Below the pieces are notes generated by a model. The model saw nothing but the letters and a program-made list of their open reading frames with translations, was not told the origin of the DNA and did no database searches. Positions 46,704 to 48,758 of a stretch of DNA of 64,000 nucleotides are shown here, piece by piece (positions within the stretch are counted from its first letter, which is position 1; every line of letters begins with the position of its first letter). The translations under genes and the position numbers were made by a program. The stretch is from an uncultured Gammaproteobacteria bacterium (GTDB lineage: Bacteria > Patescibacteriota > Microgenomatia > Daviesbacterales > UBA10151). The stretch is from assembly GCA_964489875.1 (NCBI GenBank), contig CAZAZW010000003.1, forward strand, positions 13,585 through 77,584, read 5' to 3'.

Positions 46704-48758
46704 ATGGCAAAGTCTACTAAGTACTCAGCAGAACAGATCCAGGTTTTAGAGGGTTTGGAACCGGTTCGCAAACGTCCGGGCATGTATATTGGCTCCACAG
46801 ATTTACGCGGGCTTCATCACCTTATTAAAGAAGTTGTTGATAATTCTATTGATGAAGCGCTAGCAGGCCATGCTAAAAATATTTGGGTAGTCTTACACGA
46901 AGATAACTACATGACTGTTGCCGATGACGGCCGAGGCATTCCGGTGGAAATCCACCCCAAAGTCGGGGTCTCGGCGCTGGAAGTGATTATGACTACCCTT
47001 CATGCCGGAGGCAAATTCGGGGATGGGGGATATAAGGTTTCCACCGGCTTGCATGGTGTGGGAGTTTCGGCCGTTAATGCGCTGTCTAAATACCTCCGGG
47101 CAGAGGTAAGAAGAGAAGGAAAGACTCATTTCCAGGAATACTCACAAGGTAAGGCAAAAAGTAAAGTAGCGCCTGTTCCAGAGAGTCCCACCCTTCCTTT
47201 TAAAACTAGTTTTAAATGGGATGTAAAAAGTGGCACTAAGGTGACGTTTTTGGCAGATGATACAATTTTTTCAACCATCACCCCTGAATTTGACAGGCTG
47301 GAAAAACAAGTTAAACAGGTAGCCTATTTGGTAGCAGGGATTTTTTTCCACCTCTTTGACGAACGATCCAACCAAGCAAGGCATTTTTATTTCCAGTCAG
47401 GCCTGGCCACTTTGATAAAACACTTAAATAGGAATAAAGCCTTAATACACCCGGAGCCTATTTTGATCCACAGGGTCGCGGAAGGGGTAGATATTGAAGC
47501 AGCTATCCAGTATAACGACGGCTTTGCGGAAAACGTTGAAAGTTTTGCCAATGTAGTCCCTACCACAGAAGGTGGAAGCCACTTAACAGGATTTAGGATT
47601 GCCTTGACCCGCGCCATCAATGATTATGCCAGAAAAATTGAAGCATTAAAGGAAAAAGATGAAAACCTAACCGGAGAGGATATCAAAGAAGGCTTAACAG
47701 CCGTCATATCAATAAAGATGGATTCGGATAAAATCCAATTTGAGTCACAAACAAAGGAAAAATTGGGTAATGCAGAGCTGCAGCCCCTTGTTTCCCAGGT
47801 AGTCAAAGACGGACTGGATATGTTTTTTGAAGAAAACCCGACTGATGCACGACGGATTATGGAAAAAGTGCTTCTGGCTGCCAGAGCCAGGGCTGCCGCT
47901 AGGGCTGCCAAGGATGCCGTCATTAGAAAAGGCGCTCTGGAAGGCATGGCTTTACCGGGAAAGCTGGCTGATTGCCAAAATAGGGATGCTTCCGAGTCAG
48001 AACTTTATATTGTGGAGGGAGATTCGGCAGGCGGCAGCGCCAAACAGGGCAGGGACAGAAAATTCCAGGCTATTTTGCCGCTTAGGGGAAAAATTTTAAA
48101 TGTGGAAAGAGCCAGGCTGGATAAGATCTTAGAATTTGAAGAAATTAAGTGCTTGGTAATTGCTCTGGGTACTGGGATTGGCGACACTGTTGACTACAAC
48201 AAAACCAGATATCACCGGATTATCATCATGACAGATGCGGACGTGGACGGCGAACATATCAGGACGCTGCTTTTAACATTCTTCTTCCGGTATTTGCCGG
48301 AAATTATCAATAAAGGTTATATGTATATTGCACAACCACCGCTTTTCAAAGTCCAAAAGGGGAAAGAAGTGCACTATGCCTACTCCGATGAGGAGCGGGA
48401 TGGAATTTTAAAAGAAATGAAAACCGGTAAGACAGCTAAAGATGATGTCATTCTGGGGAGCGAAGCGACTCCAGAATCTGACGGAGAGGATTCTGGACAA
48501 GACCGCATCACGCAAGACGTGAACAGAATGACAAAATCTCCGGGAATAATTATCCAACGTTATAAAGGTTTGGGAGAAATGAATCCTGACCAGCTTTGGG
48601 AAACCACCATGAATCCGGAAAATAGGGTTTTAAAACAGGTTACTGTGGAAGATGCAGTAGCAGCTGATGAAGTTTTCACCATGCTCATGGGAGATGAGGT
48701 TCCACCCCGCAAACGCTTCATCCAAACTCATGCCAAGATGGCTACCCTTGACATCTAA
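46704..48758 (+). CDS. gyrB: DNA gyrase subunit B
   Basis: 684 aa. [60 protein letters not shown] is present. Confidence 0.96.
48447..48532. repeat. About 86-bp GTCATTCTG...CAGAATGAC element inside gyrB
   Basis: gtcattctggggagcgaagcgactccagaatctgacggagaggattctggacaagaccgcatcacgcaagacgtgaacagaatgac. Confidence 0.75.

Follow-up and report, generated by a model that had tools for sequence, protein, structure and literature searches.

A hairpin-ended repeat lying in frame in gyrB of a Daviesbacteria genome and its probable relationship to elements that enclose a GIY-YIG nuclease gene

Several families of short palindromic repeats have been described in bacterial genomes. Among them, the Rickettsia palindromic elements (RPEs) are read through in frame in unrelated and often essential genes, where they are tolerated in surface-exposed regions (Ogata et al. 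2000 and 2002, as summarized in PMC10969869), while REPINs are doublets of REP sequences associated with RAYT, a Y1 HUH transposase (PMC8266576; bioRxiv 10.1101/2021.07.10.451892). The classical MITEs of bacteria (miniature inverted-repeat transposable elements), such as Correia/NEMIS, ERIC and Nezha, have been reviewed as well (PMC10969869). At the enzymatic level, a GIY-YIG domain has been reported as 'very recently inserted' in an HsdR gene, raising the question of whether such proteins are molecular parasites, and minimal nucleases of the UPF0213 type have been designated 'bacterial Slx1-like' (Dunin-Horkawicz et al. 2006; PMC1564403). Here we describe an 86-nt hairpin-ended insert in the DNA gyrase subunit B gene (gyrB) of an uncultured bacterium, found in a stretch of 64,000 nt (64 kb; contig CAZAZW010000003.1 of assembly GCA_964489875.1) that is referred to as the window and whose positions serve as coordinates throughout. 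This insert is probably a non-autonomous, hairpin-ended mobile element that sits in frame in the Toprim domain of GyrB, in a surface loop tolerant of additions, and is translated with it, the short copies of its family being derived from an element whose nuclease gene has been deleted and whose nuclease would be responsible for mobilization.

The insert (element D) occupies 48447-48532 on the plus strand and belongs to the subfamily GTCATTCTGG; it lies in frame in gyrB and encodes GyrB residues 582-610. Its full sequence is GTCATTCTGGGGAGCGAAGCGACTCCAGAATCTGACGGAGAGGATTCTGGACAAGACCGCATCACGCAAGACGTGAACAGAATGAC; the termini read GTCATTCTG/CAGAATGAC, and the arms of the inner repeat TCCAGAATC/GATTCTGGA. 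An earlier note on this DNA had described an inserted palindromic element with inverted termini at this position, a description that was confirmed by a repeat finder, by folding and by the existence of dispersed copies. The repeat finder returned terminal arms of 16 nt with 88% complementarity (48440-48455 and 48524-48539) as well as a perfect 9-nt inverted repeat formed by the inner arms (48470-48478 and 48489-48497). The pattern GTCATT-N71-100-AATGAC matched the window twice (48447-48532 and 49553-49644) against 0.15 matches expected, a count of two or more being reached in 1 of 100 shuffles. At the structural level, the 86-mer folds as RNA with z-scores of -4.4 and -5.1 for the two strands and as DNA with a z-score of -4.6, and none of 200 shuffles folded as well. 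The same note had read these sequences as a terminal inverted repeat with an internal repeat of its arm; the sequences stand, with the refinement that the architecture is one of two local hairpins. The left hairpin module (HP-L, GTCATTCTGGGGAGCGAAGCGACTCCAGAATC, 32 nt, 48447-48478, plus strand) folds locally through the stem ATTCTGG(G)GAG/CTCCAGAAT with the loop GCGAAGC. It is followed by a variable spacer of 10 nt (TGACGGAGAG, 48479-48488), located at the position that the nuclease gene takes in full-length elements; this spacer is the same in the orthologous locus L235 and different in L001 and L007. The right hairpin module (HP-R, GATTCTGG...CAGAATGAC, 48489-48532) carries 21 extra nucleotides (48502-48522) compared with its canonical form GATTCTGGACAAGCCAGAATGAC. 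These encode DRITQDV, residues that are not present in other gyrB copies, and include a small additional stem-loop predicted by folding in the HP-R loop (TCACG-CAAGA-CGTGA, 48508-48522); extra stem-loops at the same HP-R position appear in other family members too. The inverted complementarity extends 7 nt past the GTCAT/ATGAC ends (AGATGAT at 48440-48446 and AAAATCT at 48533-48539, 5 of 7 positions), which could be chance or the remnant of an older copy at the gyrB site.

The host gene, gyrB (46704-48758, plus strand), encodes 684 residues and bears the insertion in a loop of the Toprim domain, directly before a 16-residue stretch with the KGLGEM motif. Its best GyrB matches belong to Candidatus Daviesbacteria (Microgenomates, within the candidate phyla radiation, CPR), the closest of them, P0001, being 92% identical. 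Alignment of GyrB orthologues, which the earlier note had proposed as a check, revealed a loop that is empty or variously filled among Daviesbacteria: the segment from PPL[FY]K to KGLGEM measures 43-46 residues in 'empty' orthologues, proteins of about 646 residues, and 63-88 in 'filled' ones. In L004, for example, the loop is empty (...GAT AAT GTC ATT ATC CAA AGG TAT, in a 646-residue protein), while the gyrB-type subfamily with its canonical 22-residue peptide is found in P0005, P0008, P0015, P0019 and P0088. Other fillings read VIASDSEAIS...APRND, VIPTPSEASGQ... or, in another frame, SLRGASETSDVAIS, and decayed yet in-frame versions persist in some orthologues, including the closest relative P0001. 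The DNA of eight orthologues confirms these empty, filled and decayed states; in L001 and L007 the copy is 65 nt long and belongs to the gyrB-type subfamily, L006 and L361 carry other subfamilies a few codons from the same point, and the reading frame is preserved in every gyrB copy examined. On a neighbour-joining tree of loop-masked GyrB, built without bootstrap, empty, filled and differently filled alleles are interleaved, and the GyrB of the window falls together with an allele whose copy has decayed and with one that holds another subfamily. This interleaving indicates that the loop has been repeatedly gained, lost and replaced. An assembly artefact, which would have undone the claim of an insertion, is excluded by the presence of the same element at the same gyrB site in the independent assemblies L001, L007 and L235, the last with an identical spacer.

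Two further observations concern related GyrB proteins. At L002 (11738-11748, gyrB of P0041) only the joined termini GTCATTATGAC are left (GTC ATT ATG AC), encoding VIMT and followed by the KSPG flank that is seen in filled alleles; the sequence is either the footprint of an interior loss or a pre-insertion state. This 11-mer was found only at the L002 gyrB site among 360 fetched loci, and its absence from the other 359 led us to reject it as a common excision footprint. In addition, a number of closely related Daviesbacteria GyrB proteins (P0012, P0019, P0056, P0095, P0097, P0107, P0112, P0113, P0119 and P0120) reach 844-1111 residues with an intein (PF14890) located elsewhere in the protein, an intein that the gyrB of the window does not have.

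The position of the insert in the protein agrees with a permissive site. The claim that its 29 residues (582-610) have no counterpart in canonical GyrB held, given the empty loops of Daviesbacteria and the fact that the insert region aligned to no solved GyrB structure. Residues before it align to Escherichia coli GyrB up to 554 and those after it from 732 (6rks_B), a break that places the insert at the position of the 170-residue domain specific to E. coli. The insertion site proposed earlier is thus upheld with one refinement, namely that it is an already known variable loop which holds that 170-residue insert in E. coli. Both additions occupy the same Toprim position, between the ...AQPPLYKVKKGK... 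strand and the conserved 12-residue stretch, which shows that the site tolerates large additions. The E. coli insert differs in being a folded domain of other origin and sequence, fixed in its lineage and not made of repeat DNA. In an AlphaFold model of weak overall quality (62 close homologues; mean predicted local distance difference test score, pLDDT, of 61), GyrB residues 576-613 are predicted as coil with pLDDT around 30, and the 29-residue loop is hydrophilic and probably disordered. Judging from the reading frame, the peptide would be present in the GyrB protein.

Outside the window, exact matches to the first 31 nt of HP-L were found at 110 metagenome loci whose flanks are unrelated. 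Comparison of these copies defines a minimal element of 55 nt made of HP-L GTCATTCTGGGGAGCGAAGCGACTCCAGAATC and HP-R GATTCTGGACAAGCCAGAATGAC, two modules in inverted orientation (GTCATT-CTGG...CCAG-AATC and GATT-CTGG...CCAG-AATGAC) with a short spacer between them. In other copies the spacer measures 0-25 nt and the HP-R loop often holds an additional stem-loop, so that total lengths reach from 55 to 109 nt. Among 77 unique copies, the HP-R stem is ATTCTGG/CCAGAAT in 47, ATTCCGG/CCGGAAT in 10, ATGCTGG/CCAGCAT in 10, ATCCTGG/CCAGGAT in 4 and ATTCCAG/CTGGAAT in 3, and it contains a mismatch in 3; the 27 stems that differ from HP-L each do so with compensatory changes on both arms. Since HP-L was fixed by the search, these variants represent compensatory changes inside one hairpin, and they show that the conserved feature is the local hairpins and not a long-range pairing of both ends. 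The local hairpins are under selection. The flanks obey a simple rule, with a pyrimidine at -1 in 72 and a purine at +1 in 62 of 76 unique copies (YGTCAT...ATGACR), a rule that all four full copies of the window follow. Thirty-two of the 76 copies lie inside reading frames that continue for 50 codons or more to either side, and the consensus is free of stops in four of six frames, its sole stop being the TGA within AATGAC. Among four gyrB orthologues (window, L001, L007 and L235), HP-L is identical at 31-32 of 32 positions, whereas the third positions of the 62 codons for the nearly invariant C-terminus show only 55-79% identity. Such uniformity may have come about by maintenance in place, by overwriting from other copies or by re-colonization of the site.

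The family is not specific to any lineage; it crosses phyla and is tied to a GIY-YIG nuclease gene. The pattern GTCATTNNNNNNAGCGAAGCGAC, with 17 fixed bases and an estimated 70 or so chance matches in the genome collection, matches at least 120 genome loci. Hosts among the matches listed include Alphaproteobacteria (Bradyrhizobium and sphingomonads), Acidobacteriota, Chloroflexi, Clostridia (Lachnospiraceae and Oscillospiraceae), Spirochaetes (Treponema), Omnitrophica, Planctomycetes (Phycisphaerae) and CPR (Daviesbacteria). The six free bases are GCGAGG in 97 of the 123 matches listed, most of which run on as GTCATTGCGAGGAGCGAAGCGACGAAGCAATCC...GGATTGCTTCGC..CTCGCAATGAC with inverted termini matching at 10 of 10 positions; this continuation with a perfect inverted partner argues that they are not chance matches. 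Stems covary by subfamily (GCGAGG..GCAATC, CTGAGG..AGAATC, CCGAGG..GGAATC and TCGAGG..GAAATC). The pattern is also present in 117 IMG/VR viral contigs, 41 of them with the short two-hairpin form. Database searches did not retrieve the family: Rfam gave only chance-level matches to microRNA and long non-coding RNA for the window region, ten canonical loci and the full-length element, at permissive thresholds too, and Pfam and NCBIfam gave no match at E <= 10 for the peptides of three window copies and three consensus frames. In the open-access literature, no description of the family was found, matches to its sequence strings being unrelated polymerase chain reaction primers, nor was any report that connects UPF0213-type genes with hairpins at their flanks or with short derivatives; the family is not mentioned in a large census of MITEs.

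The connection with a nuclease emerged from full-length elements of 366-470 nt that have the same termini and enclose a GIY-YIG gene of 91-100 codons (UPF0213, bacterial Slx1-like), found in one Daviesbacteria genome and in four other bacterial lineages. When open reading frames (ORFs) within 2.5 kb of the 123 listed hairpin matches were clustered, a single recurrent hairpin-adjacent family appeared, of about 95 residues and with the signature YVYILTN..LYTGVT.DL.RRV.EHK; no Y1/HUH or DDE transposase family recurred within that distance. One layout, in which HP-L is followed after 20-60 nt by the nuclease ORF and then by an inverted HP-R, is seen in L017 (Oscillospiraceae), L061 (Phycisphaerae), L071 (Syntrophobacteraceae), L081 (Sphingopyxis, frameshifted) and L127; these elements measure 385-470 nt, and their hairpin subfamily is equal at both ends. 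The Daviesbacteria element (GCA_016184225.1, L238 2938-3303) consists of GTCATTCTGGTAAGTGAGTGAAACGAATGCACCCAGAATC, 23 nt, an ORF of 91 codons from ATG to TAA, gaac and GATTCTGGACAAGCCAGAATGAC, that is, the canonical gyrB-type HP-R. The ORF product matches PF01541, the catalytic domain of GIY-YIG enzymes (E = 1e-16). Among proteins of solved structure it is nearest to BH0048 and EF2693 of UPF0213 (PDB 1zg2 and 1ywl), and it scores 20.9 bits with a group I intron endonuclease model against a cut-off of 56. A GIY-YIG ORF accompanies 12 of the 110 gyrB-type HP-L loci, mostly flanked directly by that hairpin type, and homologues are annotated in Curtissbacteria, Levybacteria, Parcubacteria and Daviesbacteria. 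In 68 of the 120 closest nuclease cluster representatives, the C-terminus is the sequence DSGQARMT encoded by HP-R, and several others have ILDKPE* at their end, a reading of this DNA in a different frame; the hairpin subfamily, in turn, covaries with the gene-bearing element (GCG, CTGA and CTGG types). The cognate flanking hairpins and the C-termini encoded by HP-R mean that nuclease gene and hairpins form one unit. The short copies are this unit minus its gene, and the existence of full-length relatives with the same termini around a nuclease gene makes the gyrB insert best read as a translated non-autonomous derivative.

Some full-length elements have particular surroundings. Tandem arrays adjoin them at L153 (~3173-3310), L150 (~13250-13382) and L187 (~3700-3890), one made of four partial right hairpins (tgttcatGGACAAGCCAGAATGAC) and another of complete short elements with a constant 13-nt sequence between them, which suggests slippage or repeated break repair at element ends. 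In the Oscillospiraceae metagenome-assembled genome of L017, a complete nuclease-carrying element (minus strand, ~1088-1557) lies immediately upstream of the gyrA start; this is probably a coincidence, though gyrase genes turn up more than once beside or around an element.

In the 64 kb, five family members were detected with a profile based on the evident copies. Apart from the gyrB element, copy A (75 nt, subfamily GTCATTGCG, 5569-5643, plus strand) is intergenic, with ORFs at 5186-5548 and 5694-6110 on either side. Copy B (75 nt, subfamily GTCATTCCC, 7937-8011, minus strand) lies in frame in the ATP synthase gamma gene atpG (7673-8581, minus) and encodes 25 residues. Copy C, a solo HP-L (GTCATTGCGAGGAGCGAAGCGACGTGGCAATC, 41019-41051, minus), is in frame in the prepilin peptidase gene pilD (40422-41342, minus) and encodes VIARSEATWQS, and copy E (92 nt, subfamily GTCATTGCG, 49553-49644, plus), with termini matching at 10 of 10 positions, is in frame in murC (49375-50856, plus) and encodes (R)HCDPAKPEKQSSLEDNPTKIASSPTAPRND. 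The host frame is kept in all four genic copies (gyrB, murC, atpG and pilD), across different frames and orientations. Stems vary from copy to copy (CTG, GCG, CCC), the four arms matching mutually inside each copy. The three subfamilies with common 6-nt GTCATT/AATGAC ends that had been proposed from the sequence are all represented, GTCATTGCG at 5569, 41051 (minus) and 49553, GTCATTCCC at 7937 and GTCATTCTG at 48447. The hairpin of copy C is identical at 32 of 32 positions to one at the equivalent point of a prepilin peptidase ORF in Daviesbacteria L060 (JACPDA010000004.1), where the surrounding codons differ. Besides the element, MurC has nine residues (DENNHNDRT, region 49553-49671) that its closest orthologues, L003 and L004, do not possess; in L006 this point is taken by another long insert, which ends in ...GRFTQND, and in L002 by a short ...YCHSEP remnant. 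The MurC insertion point looks like a second hot spot resembling the gyrB loop.

How does this family compare with the described systems? It resembles the RPEs in that the gyrB, murC, atpG and pilD copies are read through in frame in a small, gene-dense genome. However, there is no sequence relationship, and the peptides of the copies match nothing in NCBIfam or Pfam at E <= 10, although NCBIfam presumably holds RPE domain models. The copies are also shorter (55-110 nt against ~100-150 nt), consist of two local hairpins with GTCAT/ATGAC ends and are spread over many phyla instead of one genus. Moreover, a nuclease-bearing full-length relative can be identified for them, whereas no mobilizing enzyme is known for RPEs. 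The likeness to REPIN/RAYT systems is structural: the dispersed unit is made of two inverted hairpin modules (minimally 55 nt here), a small nuclease gene is flanked by cognate hairpins, no target duplication is seen and hairpin structure is conserved through compensatory change. In contrast, the flanked gene encodes a GIY-YIG protein (PF01541) and not a Y1/HUH transposase, the termini are YGTCAT...ATGACR with no GTAG head, four of the five window copies are intragenic whereas REPINs are extragenic, and the hairpin is nearly the same across phyla while REPs are lineage-specific. Like classical MITEs, these are small multi-copy derivatives of a larger element that keep its ends, with inverted termini and occasional in-frame fusions. 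Unlike them, they showed no target-site duplication, their ends fold back on themselves as hairpins where a MITE has plain terminal inverted repeats, and the parent with the same ends encodes only a GIY-YIG protein of 91-100 residues and no DDE transposase. Derivatives of IS200/IS605 would account for the hairpins and the missing duplication, but no Y1 partner lies near the listed matches and, in place of the fixed tetra- or pentanucleotide 3' of which those elements insert, no constant upstream target is apparent beyond the pyrimidine. Finally, GIY-YIG homing endonucleases share the catalytic domain with elements at related loci, not in the window. Homing endonucleases possess added DNA-binding domains, reside in introns, inteins or intergenic sites of phages and spread to cognate alleles via flanking homology, and they are not known to leave short dispersed derivatives. 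The element proteins, with 91-100 residues, comprise the catalytic domain only, and no Rfam intron is found at the full-length element. Likewise, the gyrB insert differs from introns and inteins in having no Rfam match beyond chance and, for its peptide, no Pfam match.

Eukaryotic Slx1 is a structure-specific nuclease, and a comparable activity would provide a mechanism for the family. The element nuclease may recognize the local hairpins as extruded cruciforms or single-stranded DNA and cut at or near their bases. Through the resulting breaks, copies could relocate or be duplicated elsewhere, and one copy could be repaired from another by gene conversion. Repair of this kind could keep the hairpins uniform, explain how an occupied site passes from one subfamily to the next and account for the termini-only remnant of L002. 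In a gene-dense CPR genome, the copies that survive would be those in tolerant protein loops where the frame is kept. Both mobilization by the nuclease and its manner are deduced here from the arrangement of genes and hairpins.

Several results weigh against this interpretation. A tblastn search found no GIY-YIG gene in the 64-kb window or in seven syntenic loci, so that a partner in this genome is unproven, and none of 129 hairpin matches in viral contigs has an adjacent GIY-YIG ORF. GIY-YIG enzymes are not known to act as transposases, and the nuclease may consequently be cargo or a later associate. No direct repeat flanks the 76 unique copies, small or palindromic duplications hidden in the termini being still conceivable. 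The lengths of genic copies cover all residues modulo 3 in place of the multiples of three that were expected, which does not suit a simple fixed-length insertion and implies either that the true junctions are not simply GTCAT...ATGAC or that the target is altered by insertion. No clean empty/filled junction was obtained. The comparison of murC and pilD orthologues gave no insertion junction, these orthologues being too diverged and their sites variable, and plasmid and phage collections returned few, unannotated matches with no empty partner. In an all-against-all comparison of the fetched loci, the only clean pair came from two viral contigs of 98% identity (L351 10281-10712 and L250 ~5294-5301), which are distinguished by an insertion of 432 nt that has the 8-bp direct repeat CCCCTCCC at its borders and a 166-nt member of the hairpin family inside it; this pair was rejected as an element junction, the insertion being a larger composite that contains an element.

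These difficulties lend some weight to the idea that the hairpins owe their mobility to another agent, either to an enzyme of the HUH/Y1 class (RAYT or IS200/IS605 type) or to the way in which the host replicates and repairs palindromes, the nuclease being cargo or a selfish gene that homes into the elements. Subterminal hairpins with no target duplication are indeed what IS200/IS605 derivatives and REPINs display, most copies have no nuclease nearby (all 129 viral-contig matches included), and the window itself has no GIY-YIG gene. Nevertheless, GIY-YIG is the only recurrent family adjacent to the 123 listed matches, with no Y1/HUH or DDE competitor. In 68 of 120 cluster representatives, HP-R itself supplies the end of the nuclease ORF, and the hairpin subfamily (GCG, CTGA, CTGG) follows the gene-carrying element, all of which makes another mobilizer unlikely, if still worth serious attention. 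A service to the host is harder to defend. According to this view, the element would be domesticated, either as a DNA or mRNA structure acting in transcription, mRNA stability or translation pausing, or as a useful GyrB loop. Nucleotide conservation of HP-L among gyrB orthologues well above that of synonymous sites, the strong fold on both strands and the filling of the loop in many lineages are compatible with it. Yet the hairpins are decayed in the closest relative found (P0001), the loop is empty in many orthologues and reduced to GTCATTATGAC in L002, near relatives carry different subfamilies at the site, and the uniformity is equal at 110 unrelated loci, a better fit to concerted evolution or recent insertion; domestication therefore appears improbable.

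Removal of the segment before the protein functions, as a small intron, an intein-like sequence or a processed peptide, would be in keeping with the strongly structured RNA and with the true intein (PF14890) that related Daviesbacteria GyrB proteins carry elsewhere (P0012, P0019, P0056 and others). It is nonetheless very improbable, given that Rfam had no match even at permissive thresholds, that the 29 residues have neither intein motifs nor a Pfam or NCBIfam match, and that decayed, unstructured versions are still in frame; besides, every genic copy is in frame and free of stops, which a spliced segment would not need. Could the palindrome be a product of chance, in a loop that varies in any case, or of chimeric assembly? 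Loop length does vary among GyrB proteins in general, but an exact 31-mer common to 110 unrelated loci, the same element at the same site in the independent assemblies L001, L007 and L235 and the failure of all 200 shuffles to fold as well leave this explanation with hardly any credibility. The interpretation of the insert as a translated derivative of a nuclease-bearing element is accordingly the one that we retain.

Two other features of the window deserve mention. The gyrA gene (59061-61616, plus strand) contains in its coding sequence a perfect heptanucleotide tandem repeat, AAGAGTC x 4.4 (59665-59695), apparently in an extra hydrophilic segment of GyrA, where the 7-nt unit would mean a frameshift with each change in copy number. 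On the minus strand, 50842-53331 holds an ORF of 829 residues, apparently a fusion of an N-terminal domain to a Mur ligase, whose L003 orthologue has the domains MurL_N, MurL_epimerase_C and Mur_ligase.

Taken as a whole, this apparently unnamed family may well amount to a new class of element. A more specific proposal, which we regard as tentative though by no means remote, is that it constitutes an undescribed class of prokaryotic mobile element in which hairpin units are mobilized and homogenized by a minimal UPF0213 GIY-YIG nuclease instead of a DDE, HUH, serine or tyrosine enzyme. Such a class would have a nearly identical 32-nt hairpin from CPR to Bradyrhizobium and rumen Clostridia and short, stop-free derivatives in GyrB, MurC, ATP synthase gamma, prepilin peptidase and RecR. 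For CPR bacteria, the presence of apparently translated selfish DNA in highly conserved housekeeping enzymes bears on the interpretation of protein 'insertions', on gene calling and on the use of gyrB as a phylogenetic marker. For the family, a widespread repeat with no Rfam or Pfam entry, the source of ...SEATKQS... and ...APRND/LAMT peptides that recur among predicted proteins, is now linked to a family of small nucleases. If this nuclease does move or homogenize the hairpins, it would represent a new enzymatic route to transposon-like spread in bacteria, offer a compact pair of structure-specific nuclease and hairpin that is amenable to bench testing, and give a function to a large family of uncharacterized small nucleases.

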